NCBI GenBank assembly: GCA_022703565.1
Contig: JAKLDK010000001.1
Location: 8,017-72,016 of the forward strand
Reading direction: 5' to 3'
From: Candidatus Omnitrophota bacterium
GTDB taxonomy: Bacteria; Omnitrophota; Gorgyraeia; Zapsychrales; Zapsychraceae
Length of the DNA stretch: 64,000 nt
The notes under the pieces are model-generated. The model searched no databases. It was not told the origin of the DNA and saw only the letters and a program-made list of their open reading frames with translations. Shown piece by piece: positions 2,837 to 57,135 of this stretch. The first letter of the stretch is position 1. Each line of letters begins with the position of its first letter. The position numbers and the translations under genes were made by a program.

Positions 2837-2853
2837 AATGGCCTTGTAATTTA

Positions 2854-12919: not shown

Positions 12920-13027
12920 TTTATAAATATAGTGGTATGTATATACCATTAAATATACTAAATAAATGGTTGAAGTGGAATGACAGACCAGTAGAAAACG
13001 TTACCTTTTCTTAGGATAGGAGTAGAT

Positions 13028-13504: not shown

Positions 13505-13534
13505 AAAAATGAATGTTTTGTTATATTATAAGCC

Positions 13535-18470: not shown

Positions 18471-18475
18471 ATAAA

Positions 18476-19036: not shown

Positions 19037-19050
19037 CTAAGGAGTTAATT

Positions 19051-20799: not shown

Positions 20800-20808
20800 G
20801 GAAAAAAC

Positions 20809-22104: not shown

Positions 22105-22108
22105 GAAA

Positions 22109-22726
22109 ATGGCGAAAATTAAATATACAAAAGGTGAATTAAAGAAACAAAGAGATGATTTGTCTTTGTTTAGCCATTATCTGCCGACATTGCAGCTTAA
22201 GAAGCAGCAACTGCAGCTAAAGATATTAGAAATCCGTCGGCTGATAGAAGAAAGAAAGGCCGCCTTTGCAGAATCAAATAAGTCAATTTTAAAGTGGATA
22301 GGATTATTATCCGATGCTAGAACGTCGATACTCTCTTGGATCAAGCCGGTCAAGATTTTATATTCCGAGGATAATATTGCCGGAGTTGATGTTTGGGTTT
22401 ACAAAGATGTTGTTTTCAAAGAAAAAGATTACGATTGTTATTCAACGCCTTTCTGGGTAGATAAGGCCATTGAAGCGTTACAGCAAAAGATGAAATTATT
22501 GGTTGAGATAGAACTTTTAAATAAACAAATATCAGTGTTAGGCGAGGAATTACGCATTACAACCCAGCGGGTTAATTTATTTGAAAAAGTAAAAATACCG
22601 GAATCGGTGGATAATATCCGTAAGATTAGAATATATTTGGGTGATCAAATGGCGAATGCTGTCGGTATAAGTAAAGTTGCGAAGAAAAAGACGCAAACGA
22701 GGGAAGCCTTAGAGGCCGCGGTATGA
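22109..22726 (+). CDS. atpD: V/A-type ATP synthase subunit D
   Basis: A 205-aa coiled-coil central stalk protein immediately after subunit B. Confidence 0.7.
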   Translation: MAKIKYTKGELKKQRDDLSLFSHYLPTLQLKKQQLQLKILEIRRLIEERKAAFAESNKSILKWIGLLSDARTSILSWIKPVKILYSEDNIAGVDVWVYKDVVFKEKDYDCYSTPFWVDKAIEALQQKMKLLVEIELLNKQISVLGEELRITTQRVNLFEKVKIPESVDNIRKIRIYLGDQMANAVGISKVAKKKTQTREALEAAV

Positions 22727-24513
22727 TTGTAAAAATGAAGAAAATACATTTAATTGTGCAAGAAAAAGACTCGAAGAGAGCGCTTAAGAATCTTGCTCTC
22801 TTGGGGGTTGTTCACGTCGAGCATTTAGAGGTCTTGACCGGAGAACCCTTGTCTAACATCAATCAGAATATTGACAAAATAAATAAAGCGATACAAATAT
22901 TAGGCCAAATTTCTGAAGCAAAGCCGGTTAAACAGGAAGTGTTGCCCAGAGAGAAAGTTGAATTAACTGTTGATGAAATATTAAAAAATAGCGAGCAAAT
23001 TGAGAAGCTAAAAGATAACCAGCAAAAAAGGCAGAAGCTCATAGATTATTGGAAAGCTTGGGGAGATTTTAATCTGGGGGATATTAATCTCATAAAAGAG
23101 AAAGGTTTAACTGTTTCTTTGTACGAGCTACTGTCCAGCCAGATGAAGCAGATTCCTACAGATGTTTTGGTTGAGAAAATAAGTATTTCCGGTGCGATTC
23201 ATTATTGTCTGGTTGTTTCTCGAGGAGAAATCATATTGCCGGGAGTTGTTGTTAATTTGCCGGCGCAAAGCCTAAATGATATGATTCGCGAACAAAAAGA
23301 AGAGCAAGAATTAATTGTTAATAAAGAAAATGATATTAAAGCGAAGCTGGTTTATAAAGATTTATTGCAAGATGCTTTATTGCAGAACCTTGATTTAAAG
23401 AGCTTTGAAGAAGCAAATGCCGGAATGCAGAAAGATGGGGTTTTAAGTGTGCTTAAAGGCTATTGTCCTATTCACAAAGAAAGTCTTTTGCGCGATGAAG
23501 CTGTAAAGAACAAGTGGGGATTATTGCTCGAAGAGCCAGAGGCTACAGATAATGTCCCGACGCTATTACAGAATAACCGATTTATCGAATTGGTGAAACC
23601 GGTTTTTGATTTTATGGGAATTGTTCCCGGATATCATGAGGCTGATGTTAGCTTTTGTTTTCTTTTGTTCTTCTCGATGTTTTTTGGGATTCTTATCGGA
23701 GACGCCGGGTATGGAGCAATATTTTTTGGCTTGACTTTTTACTTTCATCAGAAATTAAAGAATCAAGTAACAGATAAAAAACCATTTTATTTAGTTTATT
23801 TCTTAAGCTTTTGCGCAATTGCTTGGGGCCTTTTTACCGGAACATTTTTTGGCGCTTCTTTGTTTGGAAAATATGTTAAGCCGGTTATTCCGTGGCTGAC
23901 CGATGAGCGTAAAATGCAGTTTCTTTGTTTTTTAATCGGCTCTATTCATCTAACAATAGCTCATGTGTGGAGGGCTTTAAGAAAAGGCAAGTCACTTTTG
24001 GTTTTGTCTGACGTCGGATGGATTGTAATTATCTGGTCGGCGTTTTTTTATGCCCAGCAATTTATTCTAAATACCGCAGTACCGGCTTTTGTTAATCCGG
24101 CGGTTGGCATAGCTTTCTTAATCATCGTTGCATTTAGTCAAACTTTGGCTGATATTAAAAAAGATATTCCGGCATTTGTTATTGGAATAATGTTAACGGT
24201 TTTATCTGTTATTAGCACATTGATAGATGTAATTTCATATATCCGTCTTTTTGCCGTCGGGCTTGCCGGGTTGTTCTTGGCGGAATCTTTTACTCAAATG
24301 GCGCTGGGGATTGGTTTTAGAAACTTCTTTTTAGGATTGGGAACTATTGCCGTTTTGGTTTTGGGCCATATGCTAAATGTTATTTTGGGTGTTTTAGCGG
24401 TAATGGTGCACGGCCTTCGGCTTAACATCCTTGAGTTTTCCGGGCATTTAGGATTGGAGTGGAGCGGAAGGGCGTACAATCCATTCCGACAACAATATCA
24501 ACAAAAAACGTAA
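22723..24513 (+). CDS. atpI: V/A-type ATP synthase subunit I (a-subunit)
   Basis: Hydrophilic N-terminal half and polytopic C-terminal half; conserved Arg in HGLRLNILEF. Confidence 0.8.
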   Translation: MIVKMKKIHLIVQEKDSKRALKNLALLGVVHVEHLEVLTGEPLSNINQNIDKINKAIQILGQISEAKPVKQEVLPREKVELTVDEILKNSEQIEKLKDNQQKRQKLIDYWKAWGDFNLGDINLIKEKGLTVSLYELLSSQMKQIPTDVLVEKISISGAIHYCLVVSRGEIILPGVVVNLPAQSLNDMIREQKEEQELIVNKENDIKAKLVYKDLLQDALLQNLDLKSFEEANAGMQKDGVLSVLKGYCPIHKESLLRDEAVKNKWGLLLEEPEATDNVPTLLQNNRFIELVKPVFDFMGIVPGYHEADVSFCFLLFFSMFFGILIGDAGYGAIFFGLTFYFHQKLKNQVTDKKPFYLVYFLSFCAIAWGLFTGTFFGASLFGKYVKPVIPWLTDERKMQFLCFLIGSIHLTIAHVWRALRKGKSLLVLSDVGWIVIIWSAFFYAQQFILNTAVPAFVNPAVGIAFLIIVAFSQTLADIKKDIPAFVIGIMLTVLSVISTLIDVISYIRLFAVGLAGLFLAESFTQMALGIGFRNFFLGLGTIAVLVLGHMLNVILGVLAVMVHGLRLNILEFSGHLGLEWSGRAYNPFRQQYQQKT

Positions 24514-24539
24514 TAAACAATAAATTGAAGGAGAGTATT

Positions 24540-25007
24540 ATGGAAACAGTGGGCATGATAAGTAATTTTAAAGATTTAGGGGTTGCGGCGGTGTTAGTTT
24601 TCTCGGCGATGGGTTCATGTTTTGGTGTTTTGGCAGCTGGAACAGCTTCCGTAGGAGCATGGAAAAAAGGTTTTGTCCGCAATAAGCCGGCGCCGTTTAT
24701 TCCATTGTTAGCATTTATCGGCGCACCGTTGTCTCAAACATTTTATGGCATGATCTTAATGAATAAAATTGCTGATGTGGTTTCGCAAGGAGCTTCATAT
24801 TTATGGTTTATTGGGGCTTTGGCTGGAATTGCAATCGGGTTAAGCGCAGCATCTCAAGGAAAAATTGGCGCAGCGGCGGCTGATGCTATGGGAGAATCGG
24901 AAAAGGGTTTTACCAATTATATTGCGGCCTTGGGTATTATTGAATCGGTTGCAATTTTCGTCATGGTTTTTTCTCTGCAAGTTATCAAAAAGTTGGCTGG
25001 GATATAA
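24540..25007 (+). CDS. atpK: V/A-type ATP synthase proteolipid subunit K (c-subunit)
   Basis: Hydrophobic hairpin repeats with GxGxGxG packing motifs. Start set at the ATG at 24540, which follows a GAAGGAGAG RBS; the ORF-track start overlaps atpI. Confidence 0.75.
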   Translation: METVGMISNFKDLGVAAVLVFSAMGSCFGVLAAGTASVGAWKKGFVRNKPAPFIPLLAFIGAPLSQTFYGMILMNKIADVVSQGASYLWFIGALAGIAIGLSAASQGKIGAAAADAMGESEKGFTNYIAALGIIESVAIFVMVFSLQVIKKLAGI

Positions 25008-25295: not shown

Positions 25296-25368
25296 GGGCG
25301 GTTAGCTCAGCTGGTAGAGCTCCTGACTTACATTCAGGAGGCCGTAGGTTCGAGTCCTGCACCGCCCA
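25296..25368 (+). tRNA. tRNA-Val (anticodon TAC)
   Basis: A 73-nt cloverleaf: acceptor GGGCGGT/ACCGCCC, D-stem GCTC/GAGC, anticodon stem CCTGA/TCAGG with loop CTTACAT, T-loop TTCGAGT. No CCA is encoded. Confidence 0.9.
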
Positions 25369-25453
25369 TTATTTATATCTTTTGTACGGCAAAGTTTTTC
25401 TTTACAAAGTAAAAGATTTTTAATAAACTAATGCGATTTTTCAATTTAGTTTT

Positions 25454-25528
25454 GGGCTCGTAGTGTAGCTTGGTTAACATGTCAGCTTGTCACGCTGAAG
25501 ATCGCGAGTTCGAATCTCGTCGAGCCCG
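25454..25528 (+). tRNA. tRNA-Asp (anticodon GTC)
   Basis: A 75-nt cloverleaf: acceptor GGGCTCG/CGAGCCC, anticodon stem TCAGC/GCTGA with loop TTGTCAC, T-loop TTCGAAT. Confidence 0.9.
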
Positions 25529-27714: not shown

Positions 27715-28203
27715 ATGTATAAAGATTTTCCGGAATTTGTAACATCGGAGGCTTGCCTTCAATGTGACGGCTGCTGCCGATTCTCGGACGATAAAAGTGT
27801 ATGGCGTCCGAAAGTTGGCAAAGAAGAACTGACGGATAGCATAAGGAACGATATTGGCGAAGAATTTTGTTTAAGGACTATTGACAAAAACAATCAAGCG
27901 CAATGTGTTTTCTTCCGTGAAACAAATAACAAATGTTCCATTTATCCGAATCGGCCTTTTGACTGCCGGCTTTATCCGTTTGTTTTGCTAAAAGAAAAGA
28001 ATAGGCGATTTTTATCTGTGCATAAAATGTGCCCGTATGTTTCTTCTAAACATAATTCTGAAGAATTTAAAAAGGCTGTTTGCGAAATAAAAAAGTATAT
28101 GAATGGTAAAAGTATAAAAATTTTTGTTTCTCAGAACCGACACCTCTTCGGTGAATATGTCAACTACAGAAACGAATTAGAAGTGTTATTTGAAATCGAA
28201 TAG
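27715..28203 (+). CDS. YkgJ-family Cys-cluster protein (putative Fe-S/Zn-binding, UPF0153)
   Basis: CLQCDGCC plus CVFF...CSIYPNRPFDCRLYPF, characteristic of the YkgJ CxxCxxCC family. Confidence 0.65.
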   Translation: MYKDFPEFVTSEACLQCDGCCRFSDDKSVWRPKVGKEELTDSIRNDIGEEFCLRTIDKNNQAQCVFFRETNNKCSIYPNRPFDCRLYPFVLLKEKNRRFLSVHKMCPYVSSKHNSEEFKKAVCEIKKYMNGKSIKIFVSQNRHLFGEYVNYRNELEVLFEIE

Positions 28204-29094
28204 ATGCCAAAAGATATTTTAAAAGAAAAGGCGTTGGTTGAGAAATATTTAAAGAAGCACGAGCATAGCTTAGCTGCTTTTTCTTTTGTTAATATTTTTA
28301 TATGGCAGGACTATTTTGCTTTTGATGTTAGAGAACTCGACGGGAATTTATGTGTTTTTGCGAAGAATATTGTCGGCGAATTCTTATATTTGCCGCCTTT
28401 GGGTAATTCTATCAGCCCAAAAGCGGTCGAAGTTTCTTTTGAGCGGATGAGAAAGAATAATAAGAATAGTGGTGTTAGCCGAATTGAGAATTTTGCAGAC
28501 ACAACGCTATTTGATGTAAATCAATATAAGATTTATAAAAAGAGTGAAGACTACATTTATCTTTCCAGCGATATTGCCGATTTGAAAGGGAATGCTTATA
28601 AGTCGAAACGCTCTTCATGTAATCAATTTGTTAAAAATAATAATTATGAGCTTGCGAGTTATGAGGATTCGATGAGGGGCGAGTGTTTGGCCTTGTATCA
28701 AAAGTGGGCAAGGGGAAGAAAGAGTAGCTATTCCGACGGAGTATATCAACAAATGATTGATGAGAATGAAAAAGTACATTCGCTTGTTTTCGATTATCAC
28801 CAGGAGCTTAATATGTTTTCCCGGGTGGTGTTGATTGCCGGGAGAATTGAAGGCTATACTTTCGGATATGAAATAAATAAAGATATGTTTTGTATTTTGC
28901 TTGAGGTCACAAATCTGAAGATAAACGGATTGGCGACATTCATATTTTCTAGCACTTGCCAATTGTTAGGCAAAAAATATAAATATATTAATGCGATGGA
29001 TGATTTTGGGATGGATAATATTAAAAAAGTTAAGATGTCTTTTCACCCGGTAAAATTATTGCCGGCCTATAACATGACAGAAAGTAAATGTTAA
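28204..29094 (+). CDS. DUF2156 / MprF C-terminal-domain-like protein (putative aminoacyl-tRNA-dependent aminoacyltransferase)
   Basis: A 296-aa standalone protein with size and motif distribution consistent with the tandem-GNAT fold of aminoacyl-PG synthase C-domains and VlmA-type transferases. Assigned by pattern only. Confidence 0.35.
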   Translation: MPKDILKEKALVEKYLKKHEHSLAAFSFVNIFIWQDYFAFDVRELDGNLCVFAKNIVGEFLYLPPLGNSISPKAVEVSFERMRKNNKNSGVSRIENFADTTLFDVNQYKIYKKSEDYIYLSSDIADLKGNAYKSKRSSCNQFVKNNNYELASYEDSMRGECLALYQKWARGRKSSYSDGVYQQMIDENEKVHSLVFDYHQELNMFSRVVLIAGRIEGYTFGYEINKDMFCILLEVTNLKINGLATFIFSSTCQLLGKKYKYINAMDDFGMDNIKKVKMSFHPVKLLPAYNMTESKC

Positions 29095-32820: not shown

Positions 32821-33219
32821 ATGCAAAACGACATTGAATTAAAAAACATGGACTTTGAAATTAGTTTTTATGAGAAAATAATTTCATTTAGCCCGAATTT
32901 TACTGAGGCCCTAATAGCTTTAGGTGATTTGTATACTAAAAAAGGCTTGTATTTAAAAGGCCTTACAATCGACCAGAAATTAGCGTCGCTTTGTCCGGAT
33001 GATCCGATTGTTTTGTATAATTTGGGCTGCAGCTATTCGTTATTAAACGAGGTTGATAAAGCGCTTTTGGTTATAAAAGAGGCGATTAAAATAGGTTATG
33101 ATGATTTTGAATTCCTTTCAAAAGACGAAGATTTGGGTAATTTACAAAAAGACGAACGATTTGTCCAATACTTCCTTTCCTTGAAGAAAAAAAGAACTGT
33201 TAAGCAAAAGAAGACATGA
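32821..33219 (+). CDS. TPR-repeat protein
   Basis: TPR signatures (ALIALGDLYTKKGLY, LYNLGCSYSLLNEVDKAL). Confidence 0.6.
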   Translation: MQNDIELKNMDFEISFYEKIISFSPNFTEALIALGDLYTKKGLYLKGLTIDQKLASLCPDDPIVLYNLGCSYSLLNEVDKALLVIKEAIKIGYDDFEFLSKDEDLGNLQKDERFVQYFLSLKKKRTVKQKKT

Positions 33220-35123
33220 GTTCTATTTCCAAATCCGAAGATGTTAGCGTAAAATTTGTGGCCAAAGGTATTTATGACGAGAAAAGACAATATATCCGCC
33301 TTTCCAGTGTCTTTCCGGTAGCTTTTCGTATAATTCTTCCTGATAAAAAGAAAAACGAGATGAATTGGCAGCAGGGATATACCTGTAATGTCAGTAACGG
33401 TGGAATCTGCGTTGAAACAAATGCGGTTGATAATATTACTGAGAAATTATTAAATGCGGCTGAAAATTATGTTGATATCCGGCTTAGCATTCCTCTAAGG
33501 CAAGCTCCGATTGAAGCAAGTGCTAAGCTTATATGGAGCAGGTGTGATATAGTACACGATACAAAAAAGTATTTCTTCGGGTTAAAGTTTGAAGAAATTT
33601 CTCCACGGGATTTAAGAAAAGTTGTTTGGCATGCCAAAGTGCATAAATATGCGGCTCGAGCGTCATTTTTATTAGGAATAATATTGGTGATTAGTTTATC
33701 TGCCAGTTTCTTATATAATCAAAAATTGCGGTACGAAAATAAGATGATAGTATCAGCCTTGGTTAATCTAGAGGAGAAGACGGGCCGGATGGCCCAGAGT
33801 TACGAGGTGACACAAAAGCAAGCTTTAGACAAAGAAAAAGAGTTACAGTCGGTAAGCGAAAGCGATTTAACCAGCAAGAAAAGATTAGAGAATGAATATG
33901 AAGATTTAGTAAAAAGATTAAATCAGCAGGCAGATAGCATGGATATCCTGGATAGGAAAAAGCAGGGCTTGCAAAAAACAATTTCGCAAAAAATGTATTT
34001 GTGGTTAAAAAATCACCAAAGTTATACGACGGGATTGGTCTTGAGCTTTGAAGGTAAAGATAAGATTGTTAAAGACTGGTCCTTTATTTATGACCAAGCT
34101 TTGGCGGTTTGCGTCTTTCTACTTTATGATGATACCAAAAGTGCTCGGGATATTTTGAATTTCTTTACGCGTGAATTAACCAACGATTTTAACGGATTTA
34201 ATAATGCGTTCTTTTACGATTCTGGCGATATCTCGGAATTTACCGTTCATTGCGGGCCGAATATTTGGCTGGGGATTGCAGCCTTGCAGTATGTGAAAAA
34301 AACATCGGATTACTATTACCTTGATTTAGCGAAAAGAATTGCCGATTGGCTTATTGAAATTCAAGAGGGTGATCCCGAAGGTGGGCTTAAAGGTGGCCCA
34401 ACTGTTTTTTGGTTTTCAACCGAGCATAATTTAGACGCGTATGCTTTTTTAAATATGCTTTATAATGAAACAGAAGAAGAGAAATACGGAATTGCCCGGG
34501 ATAAAATAAAGTCCTGGCTTAACAATCATGCCATGGTTCCGCATGACAGAGATTACAGCTCACCGCCTATAAATCGAGGCCGAGGCGATGCCACAATTGC
34601 AACCGATACTTTTGCCTGGGCTTTGGCTTCATTGGGCCCGCAGGAGTTGAAAGATATGGGAATGGACCCGGAAGAGATAATGAAGTTTGCCGAGGAGAAT
34701 TGCAGTGTTGCGACGAATTATGTCCGGCCCAGCGGAATAGTTGTGAATGTTAAAGGTTTTGATTTCTCAAAAGTGGCGAATATGCCCCGTGGCGGGCTTG
34801 TTTCTCCGGAATGGACATCGCAAATGATTGTGTCATTTAGGATGCTGAGCCGTTATTTTAAGAAAAACGGAGATGATTTAAAAGCAGAATATTATGCCCA
34901 AAAAGCAAATATTTATTTAAATGAATTAAATAAAATAGTTATTTCTAGTGCGTCGCCGACGGGTCGTGGCGAAGGATGCCTTCCTTATGCGACCAAGGAA
35001 AATGCTGATACCGGGCATGGTTGGAATACTCCCAACGGGAATAATACTTGCTCGATTGCCGGAACAGCTTATATGGTAATGGCGATAAAAGATTTCAATC
35101 CGCTCTCGTTAGAGCAAAATTAA
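33216..35123 (+). CDS. PilZ domain - TM - coiled coil - (alpha/alpha)6-barrel-like domain protein
   Basis: N-terminal PilZ motifs RQYIR and NVSNGGICV; a TM helix (ASFLLGIILVISL); a coiled coil; and a C-terminal ~400 aa with a W/G/A-rich six-hairpin glycosidase/epimerase-like pattern (GPNIWLGIAALQY, DQALAV). Confidence 0.55.
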   Translation: MSSISKSEDVSVKFVAKGIYDEKRQYIRLSSVFPVAFRIILPDKKKNEMNWQQGYTCNVSNGGICVETNAVDNITEKLLNAAENYVDIRLSIPLRQAPIEASAKLIWSRCDIVHDTKKYFFGLKFEEISPRDLRKVVWHAKVHKYAARASFLLGIILVISLSASFLYNQKLRYENKMIVSALVNLEEKTGRMAQSYEVTQKQALDKEKELQSVSESDLTSKKRLENEYEDLVKRLNQQADSMDILDRKKQGLQKTISQKMYLWLKNHQSYTTGLVLSFEGKDKIVKDWSFIYDQALAVCVFLLYDDTKSARDILNFFTRELTNDFNGFNNAFFYDSGDISEFTVHCGPNIWLGIAALQYVKKTSDYYYLDLAKRIADWLIEIQEGDPEGGLKGGPTVFWFSTEHNLDAYAFLNMLYNETEEEKYGIARDKIKSWLNNHAMVPHDRDYSSPPINRGRGDATIATDTFAWALASLGPQELKDMGMDPEEIMKFAEENCSVATNYVRPSGIVVNVKGFDFSKVANMPRGGLVSPEWTSQMIVSFRMLSRYFKKNGDDLKAEYYAQKANIYLNELNKIVISSASPTGRGEGCLPYATKENADTGHGWNTPNGNNTCSIAGTAYMVMAIKDFNPLSLEQN

Positions 35124-38970: not shown

Positions 38971-40269
38971 ATGAAATTCTTTATTTATTTTTCAGAATTA
39001 CTTGACTATAAGGTTTATGATTCCAAGGGAATGTATTTAGGGCAAATCCATGATTTGTCAATGCACATTACCGAGGAAATTTTCCCCCGCACGATAGGTG
39101 TTGTTGTCCGGCGGGGATTTTTGTTTAAAGAATATGTTAATGTCCCGATTGAGGTTGTTGAGCCGTATTATGAAGGTAAAATAAAGCTAAAGATAAAAAC
39201 GGCTGATTTAAAGTTTGTGAAAAAACAAATTCGTTGTGATTTTTCTCTCTCCCGGGATATCCTGGATCAACAAGTGGTTGATACTGACGGCCATAAGGTA
39301 GTCCGGGTTAATGATGTTCATTTGTTGATTGTTGAGAATATATTATACTTGGCGCATGTTGATGTGGGGACAAAAGGAATAATCCGCCGTCTGGGGTGGA
39401 CTAATGTAGTCAGAGGTGTCGTCGAATTCTTTATTCCCAATACTAATTATTTTAAGCAAGAAAAATTGATTTCTTGGAAAAACACCCATCCGATTCATAT
39501 TGGCCCCAAAAAGAATCTTTTACAAACTGATATTGCCCGTCAGAAATTAGCGCGCATACCGGTTGCTGAACTCGCGGATATTATGGAAGAGCTGGATATT
39601 TTTGAGAAATTGGCTTTATTTAAAACTTTTAGTGTGGAAATGCAGCGGGTTGTTTTCGCGGATATGTCGATACAGGAGAAAGAAGAGTTGATTGACCAGC
39701 TTGATGACCGGGAAGCGAGCAGCCTTTTGGAAAATATCCCTTCGGATGAAGCAACTGACCTTTTGCACAGTATCTCGCGAGATAAATCTACAAATTTAAT
39801 GCGATTAATGCATTCCCAATCTTCAAAAAAGCTACATAAGCTTTTGGGCTTTGAACAAAATACTGCCGGCGGGTTAATGACGACCGAATATTTATCTTTA
39901 CCGCAAAATGCATTGGTTAAAGACGCACTAGATAAAATAAAAGAGAATGCCGACCAGAGTAAATTTCCGGGAAATATAAATAGTATATATTTGGTGGATG
40001 AACAGAGTAGGCTTGTTGGGACGACAATTCTCCGCAGGTTTATTAATTCTGACCCGCAATCGTCACTGAGCAGCACTTGCCTTAATTCTAATGTTTCGGT
40101 TAAGACCGAAGATACGATTGAGGAAATAGCGTTGTTGATAGAAAAATATAAGTTTATATCAATCCCGGTTGTTGATGAAAACAATATTTTACAAGGGGTT
40201 ATAACTACCGACGATGTTATGGAAGAGCTGATTTCTTTGGCTTGGAAGAAATACAAAGATCAATTATAA
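38971..40269 (+). CDS. Soluble 2xPRC-barrel - MgtE_N - CBS-pair protein (MgtE cytoplasmic sensor module without a pore domain)
   Basis: Two PRC-barrel-like repeats (KVYDSKGMYLGQIHDL and QVVDTDGHKVVRVNDV), then the MgtE_N helical domain (ELADIMEELD...), then tandem CBS (TAGGLMTTEY..., ITTDDVMEEL). No TM segments. Confidence 0.7.
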   Translation: MKFFIYFSELLDYKVYDSKGMYLGQIHDLSMHITEEIFPRTIGVVVRRGFLFKEYVNVPIEVVEPYYEGKIKLKIKTADLKFVKKQIRCDFSLSRDILDQQVVDTDGHKVVRVNDVHLLIVENILYLAHVDVGTKGIIRRLGWTNVVRGVVEFFIPNTNYFKQEKLISWKNTHPIHIGPKKNLLQTDIARQKLARIPVAELADIMEELDIFEKLALFKTFSVEMQRVVFADMSIQEKEELIDQLDDREASSLLENIPSDEATDLLHSISRDKSTNLMRLMHSQSSKKLHKLLGFEQNTAGGLMTTEYLSLPQNALVKDALDKIKENADQSKFPGNINSIYLVDEQSRLVGTTILRRFINSDPQSSLSSTCLNSNVSVKTEDTIEEIALLIEKYKFISIPVVDENNILQGVITTDDVMEELISLAWKKYKDQL

Positions 40270-40271
40270 AA

Positions 40272-41534
40272 ATGTTCAAAAACATATTAAATAAAATTAA
40301 AAGTTCAAAAATATTTAGGAACCTATTTTTCTTTTTTGCTGTTATGGGCCCTGGGGTAATTACGGCTAATGTTGATAATGATGCCGGCGGTATCGCTACC
40401 TATTCTTTGGCCGGAGCCCATTTTGGATATTCTTTGGTGTGGTCTATTCTGCCGATTACAATCGCGTTAATTATCGTGCAGGAGATGTGCGCTCGAATGG
40501 CAGTTGCCACAGGGAAAGGATTGGCTGATCTTATTCGCGAGAATTACGGGGTGAAGGTAACGTTTTATCTCATGGTTGTTTTGTTTTTTGTTAATTTGTC
40601 GAACGTAATGGCTGAGTTTGCCGGAATAGCTATAAGTTTGGAAATATTTAATGTCAGCCGATGGTTTTCTGTTCCTATCTCGGCGTTTTTGGTGTGGATT
40701 TTAATTGTTAAAGGAAATTATAAGTCGGTTGAAAAAATATTTTTGTTTGCCTGCCTTTTTTATGTTGCCTATATTATTTCCGGATTTTTAGCCAAGCCCG
40801 ACTGGAATAATGTTATTCACCAGTCAGTCTCGCCGACAATTGATTGGAATGTCGCTTATCTTGTGATGTTGGTCGGGCTCGTTGGAACAACGATAGCCCC
40901 CTGGATGCAGTTTTATCTGCAATCTTCCGTTGTGGAAAAAGGCGTTACCGCCGAAGAATACAAAAATACGAAACTGGATGTTATTGAGGGCGGAATAATC
41001 GCACCGTTAGTTGCGTTTTTTATTGTTCTTTCTTGTGCGGCGACATTGTTTAATTCGGGAATAAAAATTGAATCTGCGGCTGATGCCGCTTTGGCCTTAA
41101 AACCTTTGGCTGGGAAATATGCCAGTTGGCTTTTCGCTTATGGTCTTTTCAATGCTTCAATATTCGCCGCATCCGTTTTACCGTTGTCAACTTCTTACAG
41201 CATTTGCGAAGGTATGGGCTGGGATACTGGGATTGATAAAAGGTTTAATGAAGCTCCGCATTTCTTTTGGCTGTATACGATAATGATTGTAATTGGTGCG
41301 AGCGTAATTCTAATTCCTAATTTTCCTTTACTTAAGGTTATGTATTTTTCGCAAGTAGGAAACGGTGTTCTTTTGCCTGTTATTTTAATTTATATGGCTC
41401 GGCTAATAAATAATAAAGAGATAATGGGTGATTTTGTTAATTCCCGCCGGATGAATATTATAACTTGGATTACGGTATGGCTCGTAATTATATTAACTCT
41501 TGCCATGGTTTTCTTCACGCTGACTCAAGGTTAA
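40272..41534 (+). CDS. NRAMP/SLC11-family transporter with NRMT-type (Mg2+) binding-site substitutions
   Basis: Start taken at the ATG at 40272 (MFKN...); the ORF-track TTG start at 40242 overlaps the upstream CDS. NRAMP TM1 GPG...TYSLAGAHFGY. Canonical DPGN is replaced by DAGG. Canonical TM6 GA(T/V)VMPHN is replaced by GTTIAPWM, so the selectivity Met becomes Ala and the Ala becomes Thr. Confidence 0.7.
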   Translation: MFKNILNKIKSSKIFRNLFFFFAVMGPGVITANVDNDAGGIATYSLAGAHFGYSLVWSILPITIALIIVQEMCARMAVATGKGLADLIRENYGVKVTFYLMVVLFFVNLSNVMAEFAGIAISLEIFNVSRWFSVPISAFLVWILIVKGNYKSVEKIFLFACLFYVAYIISGFLAKPDWNNVIHQSVSPTIDWNVAYLVMLVGLVGTTIAPWMQFYLQSSVVEKGVTAEEYKNTKLDVIEGGIIAPLVAFFIVLSCAATLFNSGIKIESAADAALALKPLAGKYASWLFAYGLFNASIFAASVLPLSTSYSICEGMGWDTGIDKRFNEAPHFFWLYTIMIVIGASVILIPNFPLLKVMYFSQVGNGVLLPVILIYMARLINNKEIMGDFVNSRRMNIITWITVWLVIILTLAMVFFTLTQG

Positions 41535-41688: not shown

Positions 41689-41727
41689 GGAGCCAGTAAC
41701 CATAGATTTTTGGGGCTCCTTTTTTTA
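41689..41727 (+). terminator. Intrinsic terminator
   Basis: GGAGCC, 17-nt loop, GGGCTCC, followed by TTTTTTTATTT. Confidence 0.8.
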
Positions 41728-41756: not shown

Positions 41757-42755
41757 ATGGGAAAAATAGTTGGAATAACATATGATTTAAAAGAGGACTG
41801 GAAGTTTAAAGAGGGCGATCCTAAGGATGCCAATGCCGAATTAGACCAGCCCAAAACAATCGATGCTATCGAAAAAGCATTGATTTCCAGCGGGCATAAA
41901 GTAAAACGCCTCGGAAATGCCTTTAATCTTTTAAAGCAAATAAATGATTTGGGAGTCGATATTGTTTTTAATATCGCCGAAGGGCATCGTGGGCGCAACC
42001 GTGAGTCGCAAGTCCCGAATATTTTAGAGATGTATGACATTCCTTTTGTCGGAGCAGACGCTTTAACGCTGGGGTTGACGCTGGATAAGATTGTAGCGAA
42101 AAAAATGTTTATTTCTGAAGGAATTCCCACTCCTAAGTTTTTTGCGGCTACAGGAAAAGAAGATTTGAAGAAATTAAATACAATTGGATATCCGTTGATT
42201 GTAAAAACAAAACACGAAGGCTCGTCAAAAGGTATTGATAAAAATGCCCGAGTCGAGAGTTTGGAGGCTTTAAAGGCTCGTGTAAAATATATTAATGAAA
42301 ATTATCATCAGGTGGCATTAGTTGAGGAATTTATCCGCGGTACGGAGGTAACTGTTCCGGTTATGGGTAATGATAATCCGGAAGCGATGCCGGTTGTTCA
42401 AGTCTGCATGGACAATAGCGTTGAGCTCGGCGACAAATTCTATTCTTTTGAAAGATTAAGCGTGCAAGCCGCAACTTTAACTTATGTTTGTCCTGCAAAA
42501 ATATCAAAAAAATTAGAAAAACAACTACAAGAAATTGCATTAAGAGTCTATAATTGTGTTGGATGCAGAGATTTTGGCAGAGTTGATTTTAGGATTGATG
42601 AAAAAAACAATCCTTACGTTTTGGAAATAAATCCTTTGCCATGCTTAATTCCGGAAGATACTTTTGGTATTTTCCCGCCGACAATCGGCTTGACATATAA
42701 TGATATTGTGAACAAGATTTTAGATAATGCTTTAAAGCGTTACAATATTTTATAG
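41757..42755 (+). CDS. ATP-grasp ligase of the D-alanine--D-alanine ligase family
   Basis: Ddl-like N-domain. ATP-grasp motifs IGYPLIVKTKHEGSSKGI, EEFIRGTEVTVPVMGN and GRVDFRID...PYVLEINPLPCL. Start at the ATG at 41757. Confidence 0.75.
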   Translation: MGKIVGITYDLKEDWKFKEGDPKDANAELDQPKTIDAIEKALISSGHKVKRLGNAFNLLKQINDLGVDIVFNIAEGHRGRNRESQVPNILEMYDIPFVGADALTLGLTLDKIVAKKMFISEGIPTPKFFAATGKEDLKKLNTIGYPLIVKTKHEGSSKGIDKNARVESLEALKARVKYINENYHQVALVEEFIRGTEVTVPVMGNDNPEAMPVVQVCMDNSVELGDKFYSFERLSVQAATLTYVCPAKISKKLEKQLQEIALRVYNCVGCRDFGRVDFRIDEKNNPYVLEINPLPCLIPEDTFGIFPPTIGLTYNDIVNKILDNALKRYNIL

Positions 42756-42762
42756 GAGAATA

Positions 42763-43950
42763 ATGGGCCCGTTAAAAGGATTTAATAATAAAACTCAGGA
42801 AAGCATCCCCGCAGAAAGAAACACAATAAACCTTACCAGAAAAGAATCCCGTTTTATTGATTTTTACGAAGAAGCAACAGCGCTTGATTGGGAAGATTGG
42901 CGTTGGCAACTTAGAAATAGAATTACGACCGAAGAACAGCTTTCTAAAATAGTTGGCTTGGTCGATGAAGAAAAAGCCGGGATAGAAGGCTGCGGTAAAA
43001 AGCTTAACATGGCGATTACCCCATATTTTGCATCACTCATGGATCCTAAAAACCCTAATTGTCCGGTTCGATTGCAATGTGTCCCCCGAGGTGCGGAGTT
43101 ACAAGTGGCCGAGGATGAAATGATTGACCCTTGCGGAGAAGAAAAAGATTCTCCCGTAGAGGGATTGGTGCACCGTTATCCGGACCGTGTTTTATTCCTG
43201 GTTAGTGAAATGTGTGCGACATATTGCCGTCATTGTACCCGCTCCAGAATTGTTGGCGAAGGAAAAAGAAAGCTTGGCCCCAAAACATATAAAAAAGCTT
43301 ATGATTATATACGCGCAAACAAAAATATCCGCGATGTCTTAATTTCCGGCGGAGATCCTCTTTTATTAAGCGATGAAGTATTGGAAGATATCATTAAAAA
43401 TATCAAAGAAATTCCGCATGTTGAAATGGTTAGAATCGGTACTCGAGTGCCGGTTACTTTGCCGCAGAGAATCACGGAAGATTTAGTTAAGATGCTTAAG
43501 AAATATTCTCCGATTTGGATGAGCATTCATTTTAATCATTATAAAGAAATTACCAAGCGTGTTAAATATGCCTGTGAAATGTTGGCTGATAACGGGATTC
43601 CTTTAGGAAGCCAAACAGTTTTGTTAAAAGGCATTAATGATGCTCCGTCGGTAATGAAGAAATTAATGCATGAACTTTTGCAGATTAGGGTTAGGCCGTA
43701 TTATATTTATCAATGTGACCCTATTGTTGGCTCAAAACACTTCAGGACGAAAGTTTCGACCGGAATTAATATTATGGAAAACCTTCGTGGACATACTACC
43801 GGCTATGGCGTTCCTACCTATGTAATTGATGGCCCTGGCGGAGGGGGCAAAATTCCCATAGCTCCGAATTATATCGTTTCTTATGAAAAAGGGCATTGTA
43901 TTATAAGAAACTTTAAGGGTGAGCAGTATCATTATAACGACCCGCTTTAA
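42763..43950 (+). CDS. kamA: Lysine 2,3-aminomutase (KamA-family radical SAM)
   Basis: Radical SAM CATYCRHCTRS, GGDPLLL motif, KamA-type N-terminal WEDWRWQLRNRI. At 395 aa it is full-length KamA rather than the shorter EpmB. Confidence 0.8.
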   Translation: MGPLKGFNNKTQESIPAERNTINLTRKESRFIDFYEEATALDWEDWRWQLRNRITTEEQLSKIVGLVDEEKAGIEGCGKKLNMAITPYFASLMDPKNPNCPVRLQCVPRGAELQVAEDEMIDPCGEEKDSPVEGLVHRYPDRVLFLVSEMCATYCRHCTRSRIVGEGKRKLGPKTYKKAYDYIRANKNIRDVLISGGDPLLLSDEVLEDIIKNIKEIPHVEMVRIGTRVPVTLPQRITEDLVKMLKKYSPIWMSIHFNHYKEITKRVKYACEMLADNGIPLGSQTVLLKGINDAPSVMKKLMHELLQIRVRPYYIYQCDPIVGSKHFRTKVSTGINIMENLRGHTTGYGVPTYVIDGPGGGGKIPIAPNYIVSYEKGHCIIRNFKGEQYHYNDPL

Positions 43951-44163: not shown

Positions 44164-44328
44164 ATGATAGAAGTAAAAATATCGGACAGTATGAATTTTG
44201 AAAAGGCAATGCGCATTTTCAAAAAAGCTTGTCAGAAAGACGGTTTTATGATGGAACTAAAAGATCGTAGATATTACAGCAAGCCATCTGAAAAAAAACG
44301 TCATAAGATGAAGAAAAAAATCAGATAA
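44164..44328 (+). CDS. rpsU: 30S ribosomal protein S21
   Basis: A 54-aa basic protein, MIEVKISDSMNFEKAMRIFKKACQKDGFMMELKDRRYYSKPSEKKRHKMKKKIR, matching the bS21 pattern (FK+aC.K.G...E...R.YEKPS..+R). Not in the ORF track because it is under 60 aa. Confidence 0.75.
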   Translation: MIEVKISDSMNFEKAMRIFKKACQKDGFMMELKDRRYYSKPSEKKRHKMKKKIR

Positions 44329-49985: not shown

Positions 49986-50318
49986 ATGCCAACCCTAACA
50001 GTATCAGATAAAAGAAGAGAAGAACGAGTCGGTTGCTTTGTCCCGGTAGTCGGAAAAGAAGGCAGTGTTTTTGATCAGACTCAGACAGTAGATTTTAGCC
50101 GCGGCGGATTAGGTTTTATCTCCAAGAAAGAAATTCCTTTAAATAAAGAAATAGCGATTGAAATTAATTTAGGCGCAGAAGAAGATCCTGTTTTCGTAAT
50201 TGGCCAGGTTTGTTGGATTCGTCCGGTATTGAATTCTGATAGATTTAGGATAGGAATTAATTTTAAGGATGTTTTGCGCGGTTCTAAGGCTCGGCTTAAA
50301 GAGTATTTTGACAGATAA
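49986..50318 (+). CDS. Single-domain PilZ protein
   Basis: RREERV (RxxxR) and DFSRGGLGF (DxSxGG) c-di-GMP-binding motifs; 110 aa. Confidence 0.75.
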   Translation: MPTLTVSDKRREERVGCFVPVVGKEGSVFDQTQTVDFSRGGLGFISKKEIPLNKEIAIEINLGAEEDPVFVIGQVCWIRPVLNSDRFRIGINFKDVLRGSKARLKEYFDR

Positions 50319-50336: not shown

Positions 50337-50684
50337 ATGGCGGTAGATGCTAATAAGGTTGAAGATAAGCGTTTTTTTGAGAGATTTCCTGCTAGTTATC
50401 CTGCCCGGGTAAAAGGTACTTTAGACCAATTTGGAGATAATGTTTATTTAAGGGATGCCTCAGCCCAAGGCGCACATATTAGCGCCCGAGGGCCTTTTTA
50501 TTTTAACGACAATGTTACTGTTGAAGTTGATTTGATGGATGGCAAAGATCCGATGACAATAAGAGGCAAAGTTGTTTGGGCTAAACCAAGCAGCAATGAG
50601 TATTGGGATATCGGTTTAAAATTCCACGAAATAAGCTTAATGAATATGTCTAGGGTTTACGGGCAATTCATGAGTTCCACATAG
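50337..50684 (+). CDS. Single-domain PilZ protein
   Basis: KRFFERF (RxxxR) and DASAQGAHI motifs; 115 aa; paralogue of the preceding gene. Confidence 0.75.
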   Translation: MAVDANKVEDKRFFERFPASYPARVKGTLDQFGDNVYLRDASAQGAHISARGPFYFNDNVTVEVDLMDGKDPMTIRGKVVWAKPSSNEYWDIGLKFHEISLMNMSRVYGQFMSST

Positions 50685-53688: not shown

Positions 53689-56600
53689 ATGTTTAAGAAA
53701 GTAATTTTATTGGTTTTAGGGTTAGTTTTACTTTTATCGGCCAATGTTTTTGCCCAAAACATGTTTTCAAATGCTGATTTCTCTAACGGCGTAAATGGTT
53801 GGTCAACAGTTGGATATCCGTTTTATGCTATTGTCAGAGCGCCAAATTATGCTGCGGAAAACACAATAACAACAGTTTCTGACCGCGATTATTTCGCAGA
53901 AATTTATCAGGTAATTACTCCTTTTACCGCCGGCGATCCGGTTTATATGACCGCTGAAATAAAAACACAGCTAGATCCAGGTTCAAGTGCTAGCGGTGGA
54001 ATTATCGTTGAATTTCTAAATGCTTCAAATAATGTTTTAAATACAATTACAACATCTGTTGTTGGCAATACGAATTGGAATACAGTTTATGTTACCGGAA
54101 CAGCTCCGGCGGGAACTGTTAAAATCAGAGCTGGTGCTTTTGTTTTTGCGGCGGAAGATGATAGTGCTGCTTTAAACGGAAAAGTTAGTGTTGATAATTT
54201 ATTTATTGATAATATTCAAGCTCCGGGCGGCGGGCTTATTACAAACCCAGGTTTTGAATCACAAATAAGCGGATGGACAACAGGCGTTGGCTCGTATCCC
54301 TTTATTGCTTCAACCGCACAAACTCATTCCGGAGTTTATTCTGCATATGATGCTGTTAATAGTGTGAGTGGAGATTATTGGGGATTTATTTATCAAACTC
54401 CGACGGTTCCAGTGGGCGGTACGATTTATGCTTCAGCGTGGGGAAAAACCGAGATTAGCCCTCTTTCATCAGCAGTTGGCGGATTAATAGTTCAATTTTT
54501 AAATTCAAGCGGAGTTCTAATTTCAAAATTAGAATCAAAAATTGGCGGAAATACTGATTGGCATCAGCTTTATGTTTCAGGAACAGTGCCTGTTGGTACC
54601 GTAACAATTAAAGTTGGTGGATATCTTTGGGCCGCAAATGGTGATAGCGCCGCTCTTGGCGGTAAAGTATATATTGATGATTTCGCGGTCTCAACAACTC
54701 CAATTCCTCCGCCGCAGCAACCGCAGGAATTAATTAATTCTGATTTTGAAAATGGAGTTAATGATTGGGCTTGGATTTACCGTCCTTTTGTGGCAAGCAC
54801 AACTGCGCATACTGGAATTTATTCAGCAAAACATAATATTGGCAACACGACGGGCCCGAATGATTATTTAGCCGAAATTTATCAGGAAATTCCTTTTACT
54901 GCCGGAAATGTTGCTTATTTGACCGGCTGGGTTAAGACAAATATAAATCCTGCAAGGACTGCGGTAGGTGGTATTAAGGTTCAATTTGTTGATGCTGCTG
55001 GTACGTTAATTGGTGCGGCTTCTCAGGCTGATCGTGACGGAATCAATGATTGGACGCTTCTTTACGTAAATGCTGTAGCTCCGACTGGAACAGCTAAGGT
55101 TAGAATTAGTGCCTTTGCTTGGGCGGATAACAATCAAGGCACAGTTAACGGGGATGTTTTTATAGACGGCCTGGCATTCTCCAATACTCCGCCGAGTTCA
55201 CTGCTTCTAAATTCAAGCTTTGAAAGCGATATGGCAGGATGGACACAAGATGCAACCGGATATCCGATGACAGCTGTAACCGAAGAACATCGTACTGGCG
55301 CAAAATCAGCAAAGACAACGATTCAGCTTCCCGGGGGAAGTTCTGATTTCTGGTCGAGAATCTATCAGGAATTTACAATTGTTCCGGGACAAGCTTTATA
55401 CGCAACAGCTTGGGCGAAGACCGCGATTAATCCGTCTTCGACGGGAACTGCTGGCTTGAAAATAGAATTCTTTAACGGTACTACTCCGACGGGATCGGTT
55501 ACTTCAAATACTGTTGGTGGGCAAGCCGGATGGACATATCTTTATGCTTTTGCAACCGCACCAGCTGGAACAACAAAGGCTCGCATCAGCCCTTTTGTTA
55601 GTTGCCCTCGCGCAACAGCAAATTTAGGCGGAAATGTTTATTTTGATGATGTTTATGGTTCATTCGACCAGCTTCCTCCCCCGGCATTTAGGACAGCTTT
55701 GATCAACGCTAGTTTTGATGACGGAAGTGGGCTAGGAGGATGGACGGACCTTTATGGTTTACCGACGACGCTAGATTCTATAAATTCTTATTCAATTCCA
55801 TATTCGGCAAAAAAGACATTCGCGCAAATTCCGGATCAGGATTATTACACTACTGTCTATCAAGATATTTACTATAATGCAAATGGTACGCCATTTCCGA
55901 CGGCAAGAAATGTGTATTTAGCTGCTTATATTAAGACGGCAATTAATCCTTTGGCAAATGCTTCGGGTGGAATTGCGCTTGAATATTTTGATGAAAGCGG
56001 CGAAGCTTACACAATAGATACTGATCAGGTTAGTGCAAACAATGATTGGCGGCAGCTTTATGTTTCCGGAACGATTCCAGCGGGGGCAACCAAAGTGAGA
56101 GTTTTGGGATTTGCGTTTGCTCCGTTAGGTGAAACTTTAGCTGATAACGGAATTGTTAATTTTGATAATTTTAACTTTTCCTATAACTACATTCCGGAAC
56201 AAGTTCAAACATCGTTGTTGAATGTTGGATTTGAAAACGGATTGAATGATTGGGATCAGTTAAATCGTTTAGCCGGAATTACACAAGCTCCGGTTCATGG
56301 AGGGAACTATTCTTCATATTTTGACATTCAGGTTGATTTAGTAGATCCTCAAGATTATTATGGAACATTGTCACAAGATATTGCTGTTTTACCTGGGAAG
56401 ATAGTAGAAGCCAGCGCTTGGGTTAGTACGGATATTTACCCGCTTACAAATGCTCAAGCCGGTATAAAATTACAATTTATTGACGGCAATGGACAGGCAA
56501 TTGGTCCGGAATATACAAACGGAATTGGCGGCAATACCGGGTGGACTCAACTAAGTTTGGTCCGAACTGCTCCGGCACAAACAGCTAAAGTTCGGTATAT

Positions 56601-57135
56601 TTTATTCTTGTATGCGGAAGGCCTTTCGGCAATTAACGGAGATAGGGCTTACTATGATGACGCTTCTTTGCTTATCCGTAATGCTCCTGGCCCAGGATGC
56701 TTTTTAGCTGAAACTCCGATTACCTTATCAGATGGCTCAACTAAGCCTATTGAAGAAATAAAAATAGGCGATATGGTTATGGCTTACAATGAAGAGACAA
56801 AGACATTAGAAACTAATGAAGTAACAACAATTTTCAATCATGACAAGGAAGATGTTTATTTGCTGGTCAACGGTACTCTTAAGGTTACTCCGGTTCACCG
56901 TGTTTTAACTAAAGGCGAGTGGAAGGAAATCGGTACATTGGCTGTAGGCGATACCTTAACCGATATGAAAGGCAATGATGTTCTTATTGCTTCAATAGAA
57001 AAAGTTAACGAAAAGGTCGATATCTATAATTTTGAAGTATCGCCTCTTCATACCTACATAGCTGGCGGATTTATAGTTCACAATAGAAAACTAAACTATA
57101 CAATAGCTTTTGGCGATGGGAATGGAACTCGTTAA
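53689..57135 (+). CDS. Secreted protein with six tandem CBM4/9-like carbohydrate-binding modules and a C-terminal Hint (bacterial intein-like) domain
   Basis: Signal peptide. Six ~165-aa repeats each open with N-x-x-F-E/S-x-G-x-x-G/D-W and close with a V-x-h-D-D/N-h motif. The final 145 aa are CFLAETPITLSDG...VTPVHRVL...GGFIVHN followed by a 16-aa tail: Cys1, a TxxH-like block, and terminal His-Asn with no +1 nucleophile. Confidence 0.75.
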   Translation: MFKKVILLVLGLVLLLSANVFAQNMFSNADFSNGVNGWSTVGYPFYAIVRAPNYAAENTITTVSDRDYFAEIYQVITPFTAGDPVYMTAEIKTQLDPGSSASGGIIVEFLNASNNVLNTITTSVVGNTNWNTVYVTGTAPAGTVKIRAGAFVFAAEDDSAALNGKVSVDNLFIDNIQAPGGGLITNPGFESQISGWTTGVGSYPFIASTAQTHSGVYSAYDAVNSVSGDYWGFIYQTPTVPVGGTIYASAWGKTEISPLSSAVGGLIVQFLNSSGVLISKLESKIGGNTDWHQLYVSGTVPVGTVTIKVGGYLWAANGDSAALGGKVYIDDFAVSTTPIPPPQQPQELINSDFENGVNDWAWIYRPFVASTTAHTGIYSAKHNIGNTTGPNDYLAEIYQEIPFTAGNVAYLTGWVKTNINPARTAVGGIKVQFVDAAGTLIGAASQADRDGINDWTLLYVNAVAPTGTAKVRISAFAWADNNQGTVNGDVFIDGLAFSNTPPSSLLLNSSFESDMAGWTQDATGYPMTAVTEEHRTGAKSAKTTIQLPGGSSDFWSRIYQEFTIVPGQALYATAWAKTAINPSSTGTAGLKIEFFNGTTPTGSVTSNTVGGQAGWTYLYAFATAPAGTTKARISPFVSCPRATANLGGNVYFDDVYGSFDQLPPPAFRTALINASFDDGSGLGGWTDLYGLPTTLDSINSYSIPYSAKKTFAQIPDQDYYTTVYQDIYYNANGTPFPTARNVYLAAYIKTAINPLANASGGIALEYFDESGEAYTIDTDQVSANNDWRQLYVSGTIPAGATKVRVLGFAFAPLGETLADNGIVNFDNFNFSYNYIPEQVQTSLLNVGFENGLNDWDQLNRLAGITQAPVHGGNYSSYFDIQVDLVDPQDYYGTLSQDIAVLPGKIVEASAWVSTDIYPLTNAQAGIKLQFIDGNGQAIGPEYTNGIGGNTGWTQLSLVRTAPAQTAKVRYILFLYAEGLSAINGDRAYYDDASLLIRNAPGPGCFLAETPITLSDGSTKPIEEIKIGDMVMAYNEETKTLETNEVTTIFNHDKEDVYLLVNGTLKVTPVHRVLTKGEWKEIGTLAVGDTLTDMKGNDVLIASIEKVNEKVDIYNFEVSPLHTYIAGGFIVHNRKLNYTIAFGDGNGTR

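Follow-up and report, generated by a model that had tools for sequence, protein, structure and literature searches.

Two adjacent genes in a 64,000-nucleotide stretch of a Candidatus Omnitrophota contig (JAKLDK010000001.1, positions 8,017 to 72,016; hereafter, the window) code for an ATP-grasp protein that resembles D-alanine-D-alanine ligase (Ddl) and for a short form of lysine 2,3-aminomutase (KamA). With a probability of about 0.6, the two genes form one operon for a two-step pathway, in which the beta-lysine made by KamA would be incorporated by ATP-dependent ligation into a small amide or peptide. The original prediction, made from the sequence alone, had given these positions and named the two genes in this way; positions and identities were both confirmed, on the + strand (Table 1). 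The ATG start of the ligase gene at 41757 agrees with the N-terminus MGK.VG.TYDLK (MGKIVG.TYDLK) of all homologues; a longer open reading frame from a TTG at 41736 was rejected as unsupported, since the homologue N-termini fit the ATG. The ligase gene closes with a TAG whose last base is 42755, and KamA begins with an ATG at 42763. The close adjacency already noticed is therefore real, while the distance of 8 bp given for it was a difference between coordinates, the actual spacer being 7 nt. The ribosome-binding site of KamA, AGGAGA, overlaps the ligase stop codon, and this overlap, together with the short spacer, suggests co-translation of the two genes as one operon.

The linkage of the two genes was analyzed within the phylum. 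A scan of one genome per GTDB species identified a relative of the ligase in at least 552 species; locus counts rest on the best 80 relatives, all of which belong to Omnitrophota. KamA lies downstream of the ligase, on the same strand, in 75 of the 75 evaluable loci, the other five being cut by the contig end. The two-gene form, as in the window, was found in 35 of the 80 loci, and a three-gene form, in which a second Ddl-like paralogue (A2) is placed between the window-type ligase (A1) and KamA, in 43; two loci were left unclassified for this distinction. In the three-gene loci the reading frames abut or overlap, e.g. at 5001-5993, 5994-6995 and 6992-8179 of L031. The wider neighbourhood is syntenic as well, with either era, yjeF_N and nth or M20 peptidase, PAC2 and HAD genes upstream, and a ychF-like gene and purH downstream. 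The M20 peptidase was rejected as a member of the module: it is an ordinary ArgE/DapE-family deacylase, two unrelated genes away, and it stands upstream in the three-gene loci. Many of these Omnitrophota-type loci (L009-L088) are labelled "uncultured Planctomycetales bacterium", and one (L070) "Candidatus Margulisiibacteriota"; such labels of metagenome-assembled genomes (MAGs) are probably taxonomic mislabels.

Outside the phylum, the association takes a larger form. In locus L097 (7001-11226), ligase A is followed by ligase B, a 159-aa GNAT acetyltransferase and a lysine-type KamA, and a metagenome scan with type-A ligases as in this locus returned 80 loci (L098-L177), with a guanine-plus-cytosine (G+C) content from 0.28 to 0.73. 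KamA is part of the cluster in 52 of the 80 loci and in 52 of the 53 evaluable ones: 27 of the 28 loci devoid of it end at most 335 bp after the last cluster gene, and L134 is the single true exception. The dominant architecture is A-B-GNAT-KamA, present in 36 metagenome loci (e.g. L105, 7001-10833, and L141, 7001-10659), while 16 more display the variants A-B-KamA, KamA-A and A-GNAT-KamA. The flanks consist of unrelated housekeeping genes (recG, thyX, gpsA, plsY, NAD kinase) that vary from lineage to lineage. Those of the 45 metagenome loci of at least 8 kb share no transporter or regulator, and neither efp nor epmA nor mur genes recur in them; no natural-product tailoring genes are found with the clusters. 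Some of the low-G+C loci resemble Bacteroidota, e.g. L126, where a T9SS-tail protein is encoded. The cluster GNAT has about 155 residues and weakly resembles RimI; no AblB-type model was reported for it.

An exhaustive search of representative sequences yielded 884 clusters at E<1e-30, many of them composed of proteins of 600-720 aa with two Ddl-like modules. In about 11 clusters (P0299, P0408-P0417) the ATP-grasp module is fused to a KamA-family module in a single protein of 690-718 aa, with the ATP-grasp module first; these putative enzymes display the same ligase-aminomutase logic. The fusion genes (e.g. that of P0412, in L089, 5959-10157) are preceded by the genes for a RaSEA-like radical S-adenosylmethionine (SAM) protein and for a GntC/VioD-like enzyme dependent on pyridoxal phosphate (PLP); this neighbourhood suggests a different, possibly arginine-derived, beta-amino acid. 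In the high-G+C contig L091, the order is a lysine-type KamA, a fused double ligase and a third ligase. In the same locus, CxxCxxCC/Rv0495c genes are found after the ATP-grasp/KamA cluster (12994-14220). Given its conservation and the gene fusions, the adjacency of ligase and KamA is far beyond chance; the persistence of the linkage across differing genomes and contexts, together with the fusions, represents strong evidence for a common pathway of ligases and aminomutase. A joint function of the two enzymes, as had been proposed from the window alone, is strongly supported by the 75 Omnitrophota loci, by the fusions and by the clusters with different flanks found elsewhere.

The ligase shares the Ddl fold, but it differs from Ddl in most of the features that define that enzyme. 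Pfam matches are to Dala_Dala_lig_C (PF07478), at 1.8e-38, and to generic ATP-grasp models; the N-terminal model Dala_Dala_lig_N (PF01820), which canonical Ddls have, was not detected in the window ligase and is missing from the precomputed Pfam annotation of 120 homologues. The best NCBIfam Ddl score is 185.2 bits versus a cut-off of 243, and the Ddl, Ddl-Ser, Ddl-Lac and Van models are all below cut-off among the matches listed (the best 25 of 62 families). The homologues are named "ATP-grasp domain-containing protein" by PGAP and D-alanine-D-alanine ligase by JGI. The AlphaFold2 (AF2) model, with a predicted local distance difference test (pLDDT) score of 93.8, displays the three-domain ATP-grasp fold of Ddl, and the top 50 PDB fold matches are all Ddl or Van enzymes, with template modelling (TM) scores of 0.69-0.81; the closest solved folds have TM 0.75-0.81 at 20-25% identity. 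A1 and canonical Ddls are about 27-28% identical.

Residues were mapped by local-pair alignment with E. coli DdlB and six canonical Ddls, and are given in E. coli DdlB numbering; the DdlB sequence used is consistent with the PDB matches. The residues for ATP, Mg and catalysis (K97, K144, E180, E187, R255, D257, E270 and N272) are kept in 83 of 83 orthologues. E15 is kept in six of six A1 sequences by the local-pair alignment, which replaced for this column the automatic alignment of the 83 sequences, where it is mis-aligned. The residues that reportedly form the D-Ala pocket are instead replaced: H63 by Glu in all 83 orthologues (E75 in the window protein), K215 by Ile, Val, Thr or Leu in 82, Y216 by Thr, Ala, Gln, Ser or Leu and G276 by Ser, Asn or Cys (n=83 for both), S281 by Asp in 80 and by Glu in two more (D301 in the window protein), and L282 by Val, Ala or Thr in 80 (Val in the window protein). 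The GEDG motif reads G79-R80-N81-R82-E83-S84 in the window protein, with a two-residue insertion. All seven canonical Ddls keep H63, K215, Y216, G276 and L282, position 281 being Ser in four and Gly in three; A2 and the metagenomic groups A and B keep K215, and A2 and A also keep S281.

The neighbour-joining tree (321 columns, 100 bootstraps, six canonical Ddls sampled) recovered the canonical Ddl clade with 100/100 bootstraps and the window protein inside the A1 clade, also with 100/100; A1, the paralogue group A2, and the metagenomic groups A and B form a superclade outside Ddl. Judged by score, domain content, residues and phylogeny, the ATP-grasp protein does not qualify as a D-Ala-D-Ala ligase, and A1 is probably an active ligase of another specificity than Ddl. 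The original prediction had regarded a sole ddl with all the D-Ala-specific residues as the sign of a coincidental housekeeping neighbour; H63, K215, S281 and L282 turned out to be replaced, and the protein to score below the Ddl cut-offs and outside the Ddl clade in the tree just described. No second Ddl-like gene was found in the 64-kb window, and no canonical Ddl in any flank of the relatives' loci examined.

The product of the second gene matches LAM_C and Radical_SAM in Pfam and passes the KamA family model TIGR00238 (353 bits versus a cut-off of 199). Its best-scoring aminomutase model is the NCBIfam equivalog for AblA, the lysine 2,3-aminomutase, with 520.7 bits versus a cut-off of 525.4; the match stops at position 361 of the 417 in the model, which accounts for the small shortfall. 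The glutamate and arginine aminomutase models score 471 and 418 bits, respectively, and EpmB 241.7 bits (cut-off 369.3). Residues 31-395 align to 5-369 of the Clostridium subterminale enzyme (PDB 2A5H) with an E-value of 7e-144, and the equivalents of the CxxxCxxC motif (C125, C129, C132), R134, D293, D330 and the PLP-binding K337 are all present. These residues are kept in 70-75 of the 75 Omnitrophota orthologues; counting only the sequences aligned at each position, R134 is found in 75/75, D293 in 73/73 and D330 in 70/70. The two Asp residues, D293 and D330, are reported to bind the epsilon-ammonium group of lysine, and to be replaced by Lys and Asn in glutamate 2,3-aminomutase. Since R134, D293 and D330 are kept, the substrate of the window enzyme is most probably free L-lysine, and its product beta-lysine.

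The aminomutase had been described as full-length, which holds for the catalytic core, complete in the window protein, and not for the C-terminal zinc segment, which is absent, leaving the protein about 47 residues short of the 416-aa C. subterminale enzyme. The inter-subunit zinc site is missing because the protein stops where residue 369 aligns, so that Cys375/377/380 are absent, and because Ala replaces Cys268. The latter is found in 0 of the 75 Omnitrophota orthologues, and the tail after the PLP lysine measures 26-35 aa in the orthologues complete at that position (five loci end before it), versus 79 aa in the clostridial enzyme. On this census, the short C-terminus lacking the inter-subunit zinc site is a feature of the clade.

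In the pathway that we propose, KamA would first use radical SAM/PLP chemistry to turn free L-lysine into (3S)-beta-lysine, as expected from the conservation of its residues and from its identity, in the 60% range, with the solved enzyme. In the second step, for which the fold, the conserved catalytic residues and the gene linkage speak, A1 would form an acyl-phosphate with ATP and join it to an amine, beta-lysine being one of the two partners; the predicted product is an amide containing beta-lysine, either a dipeptide, an isopeptide or a short oligomer. In A1 the residues that hold the carboxylate of the second D-Ala (K215, S281 and L282) are lost and a near-invariant Asp is gained; from these changes it may be speculated that the nucleophile site accommodates a positively charged amine rather than a carboxylate. 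Possible acceptors are lysine or beta-lysine, with the distal or the beta-amino end, a di- or polyamine, or another amine. The window pair looks like a reduced Omnitrophota form of the wider operon of ligase A, ligase B, small GNAT and KamA, whose product, by analogy, is probably an N-acetylated di- or tripeptide of beta-lysine; in Omnitrophota, B and the GNAT appear to have been lost and A to have been duplicated, with the lineage of the window keeping only A1.

The most plausible role of the product is that of a solute of the cytoplasm or of a cationic metabolite, because the clusters are located among housekeeping genes and have neither a transporter nor natural-product tailoring genes; this setting, and an occurrence almost throughout the phylum, favour a core metabolite over an antibiotic. 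A broader proposal is advanced more tentatively, at slightly less than even odds: that an unrecognised class of beta-lysine peptides or amides is produced by a dedicated, Ddl-derived ATP-grasp superclade, in Omnitrophota and, in the four-gene form, in many other bacteria, with A1 as an isopeptide-forming or cation-accepting ligase, and with the product serving as a core metabolite, namely a solute, a polyamine substitute, or a means of beta-lysyl modification of macromolecules independent of EpmA.

Several observations weigh against this interpretation of the operon. Across Omnitrophota, the neighbours of the pair are largely syntenic, so that within-phylum adjacency is only suggestive and weak evidence by itself; the case rests on the fusions and on the out-of-phylum clusters. 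The KamA half of the fusion proteins, in turn, carries D293Q, and because of this replacement the fusions probably act on an amino acid different from lysine. Fused double Ddl-like ligases of 669-675 aa are also found directly upstream of a Peptidase_S58 gene, with no KamA, in L092 (8001-11126) and L094 (7001-10116); the superclade is thus not exclusively a beta-lysine family. These double ligases and the S58 (DmpA/BapA-type) aminopeptidases may represent a pair for the synthesis and turnover of an unusual peptide. As to the enzyme itself, A1 has no conserved Lys at the catalytic K215 position, a loss which could result in altered chemistry or reduced activity. Finally, published calls of ddl as present in Omnitrophota, at the level of KEGG orthology (KO) or COG, may refer to the A1 gene.

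This last point bears on the explanation that the ATP-grasp protein is the housekeeping D-Ala-D-Ala ligase and that its adjacency to KamA is inherited synteny with no functional meaning. The organism makes peptidoglycan, as indicated by the S11 D-Ala-D-Ala carboxypeptidase, glmS and uppP genes of the window, and a peptidoglycan ending in D-Ala implies that either a real Ddl is encoded elsewhere or the A1 protein does the job. Ddl is the closest solved family, JGI labels the homologues accordingly, no other Ddl-like gene occurs in the window or in the flanks examined, the region is syntenic across the phylum, and a preprint reports K01921 (ddl), at the KO level and with the gene unspecified, in 176 of 176 complete Omnitrophota genomes. 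However, a housekeeping Ddl should not fail all the curated Ddl thresholds, lack a detectable Dala_Dala_lig_N, or have H63, K215, Y216, G276, S281 and L282 replaced in 80-83 of 83 orthologues. Its position outside the Ddl clade (100/100) and outside a mur/fts neighbourhood is no more easily explained, and relatives fused to KamA, or tandem-duplicated beside it in unrelated genomes, would be unexpected for a cell-wall enzyme; we consider this explanation very improbable.

ATP-grasp enzymes also modify proteins (RimK, LysX, TTL) and peptidoglycan precursors (the D-aspartate ligase Aslfm). With such precedents, the ligase could place beta-lysine on a macromolecule, acting as an analogue of EpmA on elongation factor P (EF-P) or another protein, or as an Aslfm-like enzyme on a peptidoglycan precursor. 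The acceptor pocket of A1, which no longer looks fit for the carboxylate of a free alpha-amino acid, would agree with this, as would the absence of a conserved transporter and the surroundings of the clusters, with genes for housekeeping and translation (in the window, era, rpsU and mnmE). Nevertheless, KamA is similar to LAM/AblA and not to EpmB, whose cut-off it misses widely, and efp, epmA and mur genes neither recur by the 45 metagenome loci nor were seen in the Omnitrophota loci inspected; EF-P modification was discarded on the lack of efp or epmA recurring in the flanks. Moreover, two to three ligase modules and a GNAT fit the stepwise assembly of a small peptide better than the modification of a single protein. 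Transfer to a macromolecule is thus unlikely. Even less can be said for the ligase gene being a mere passenger beside a KamA that feeds lysine fermentation or the synthesis of the osmolyte Nε-acetyl-beta-lysine. KamA is only 5 bits under the AblA equivalog cut-off and the wider cluster includes a GNAT; but no GNAT was found beside the pair in the window or in three Pfam-annotated Omnitrophota relatives, and the GNAT of the cluster, with its small size and weak likeness to RimI, does not point to AblB. Among the approximately 46 window proteins scanned, no AblB-type GNAT, other Pfam acetyltransferase, epmA/efp or lysine-fermentation domain (beta-lysine 5,6-aminomutase, kdd, kce, kal) was reported, the sole other lysine-related match being a stand-alone LPG_synthase_C protein (28204-29094). 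The link between ligase and KamA, which extends to gene fusions, is too consistent for a passenger, and this alternative is hardly credible.

Ligation of beta-lysine into a small amide, the reading preferred here, finds partial parallels in known systems. With Ddl/VanA (EC 6.3.2.4), A1 shares the three-domain ATP-grasp fold (TM about 0.8) and the machinery for ATP/Mg and acyl-phosphate; it differs in its low identity and sub-threshold scores, in an N-domain unseen by Pfam, in the replaced pocket, in its separate clade, and in a gene located beside KamA and not among mur/fts genes. The AblA/AblB system, which produces the Nε-acetyl-beta-lysine osmolyte of methanogens, has the same type of aminomutase, and its product is likewise used by the enzyme of the adjacent gene; here, however, the partner is an ATP-grasp ligase and not the AblB acetyltransferase, KamA lacks the C-terminal segment, and the wider cluster has two ligases and a GNAT that is much smaller and not of the AblB type. 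EpmB/EpmA (YjeK/PoxA) also combine a KamA-family enzyme with an ATP-dependent activator of the beta-lysine carboxylate for transfer to an amine; unlike the ATP-grasp ligase, for which an acyl-phosphate is predicted, EpmA is a class II lysyl-tRNA-synthetase paralogue acting via an adenylate, and the KamA of the window is LAM-like, with no efp linkage seen.

N-acetylated di- and tripeptide solutes are built by a GNAT and an ATP-grasp enzyme in the case of Ngg/AsnO, for N-acetylglutaminylglutamine amide, and of RIMKLA/NAT8L, for N-acetylaspartylglutamate (NAAG). These systems are the best analogy for the A-B-GNAT-KamA cluster, with the differences that their ligases are similar to RimK or cyanophycin synthetase and not to Ddl, that they use alpha-amino acids (Gln, Asp, Glu), and that no aminomutase is known to be involved; the reduced version of the window, moreover, has no GNAT. 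Carnosine synthase (CARNS1/ATPGD1) is an ATP-grasp enzyme joining beta-alanine to the amine of an amino acid, which shows the proposed chemistry to be feasible; that enzyme is eukaryotic and much larger, and an aminomutase is not known to supply its beta-amino acid. Small non-ribosomal amides are also made by the Ddl-like MysD and by the L-amino-acid ligases BacD/YwfE, RizA and TabS. These are likewise ATP-grasp ligases recruited for small amides, but they belong to secondary-metabolite clusters of narrow distribution, and none of them is known to be linked to KamA.

The pairing of ligase and aminomutase is undescribed in full-text literature searches, whose coverage leaves out most subscription journals. 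The enzyme superfamilies are well known and the chemistry appears ordinary for ATP-grasp; what appears new is the pathway, with a superclade of ligases derived from Ddl and devoted to what a 2,3-aminomutase produces, organized as a two- to three-gene module in Omnitrophota and as a four-gene module elsewhere. The established fates of beta-lysine are acetylation by AblB, transfer to EF-P by EpmA, and fermentation, with the antibiotics made by non-ribosomal peptide synthetases (NRPS) as a fourth. If the proposal is true, an ATP-grasp route would be the fifth and would fill a substantial gap in annotated metabolism; its carriers would number at least 552 species in Omnitrophota, besides a wide range of other bacteria whose G+C content runs from 0.28 to 0.73. 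The label "D-alanine-D-alanine ligase" assigned by some pipelines can also lead to excessive or false calls of the peptidoglycan pathway in uncultured phyla. The enzymes are candidate biocatalysts for beta-peptide bonds, and the S58 peptidases beside the paralogous clusters hint at a natural turnover of beta-peptides; to our knowledge, the physiological substrates of these peptidases have long been unknown.

The window has a G+C content of about 0.38 and is coding almost entirely on the + strand; the closest named homologues are all from Candidatus Omnitrophota MAGs. Upstream of the pair, a gene for an MgtE_N/CBS protein is followed by an Nramp transporter and by a 222-nt spacer, while rpsU (44164-44328), purH, folC and mnmE are found downstream; era is also present in the window. 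Two elements of the spacer are listed in Table 1. The hairpin, whose fold has a z-score of -2.06, could be the terminator of the Nramp gene or an attenuator, and the palindrome is a candidate operator; the membership of either in the module is uncertain. The intergenic length upstream of the ligase varies from 6 to 280 nt across the relatives, and the spacing of the hairpin is not conserved. An Rfam scan of the region upstream of the pair gave no match at gathering thresholds and, at E up to 10, only matches at chance level; a riboswitch or conserved leader was ruled out on the lack of an Rfam family, the z-score and the variable spacing. Promoter and terminator scans gave counts equal to the shuffled expectation.

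Table 1. Features of the ligase-KamA locus, in window coordinates.
Feature	Position	Strand	Basis
Type-A1 Ddl-like ATP-grasp ligase, 332 aa	41757..42755	+	Pfam, NCBIfam, AF2 model, residue mapping, tree
Short-form lysine 2,3-aminomutase (KamA/AblA-like), 395 aa	42763..43950	+	NCBIfam, PDB 2A5H alignment, residue census
AGGAGA ribosome-binding site for KamA	42754..42759	+	Direct sequence reading
G+C-rich hairpin GGAGCC...GGCTCC, then T7	41689..41726	+	Sequence; ends 30 nt before ligase start
Perfect 8-N6-8 palindrome TTGTGATA-N6-TATCACAA	41584..41605	.	Direct sequence reading

The MgtE_N protein upstream of the pair also contains CBS and PRC-barrel domains, has no membrane domain, and overlaps the Nramp start (38971-41534); MgtE_N/CBS and Nramp genes lie directly upstream of ligase-KamA in a subset of the Omnitrophota loci (e.g. 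L013, L015, L027 and L037). Elsewhere in the window, a protein with a CxxCxxCC zinc/iron-chelating domain is followed, with no gap, by the soluble LPG_synthase_C protein, an aminoacyl transferase similar to the C-terminal part of MprF (27715-29094). A V/A-type ATPase operon (A, B, D, I and c subunits; 17859-25007) is followed by two tRNA genes (25296-25528), and three separate PilZ-domain proteins are encoded at 33216-35123, 49986-50318 and 50337-50684. A secreted-looking protein of 1148 aa (53689-57135) is composed of repeat modules of about 170 aa with a Hint/PT-HINT domain at the end; Hint-domain proteins also flank the L004 locus (2631-4721).

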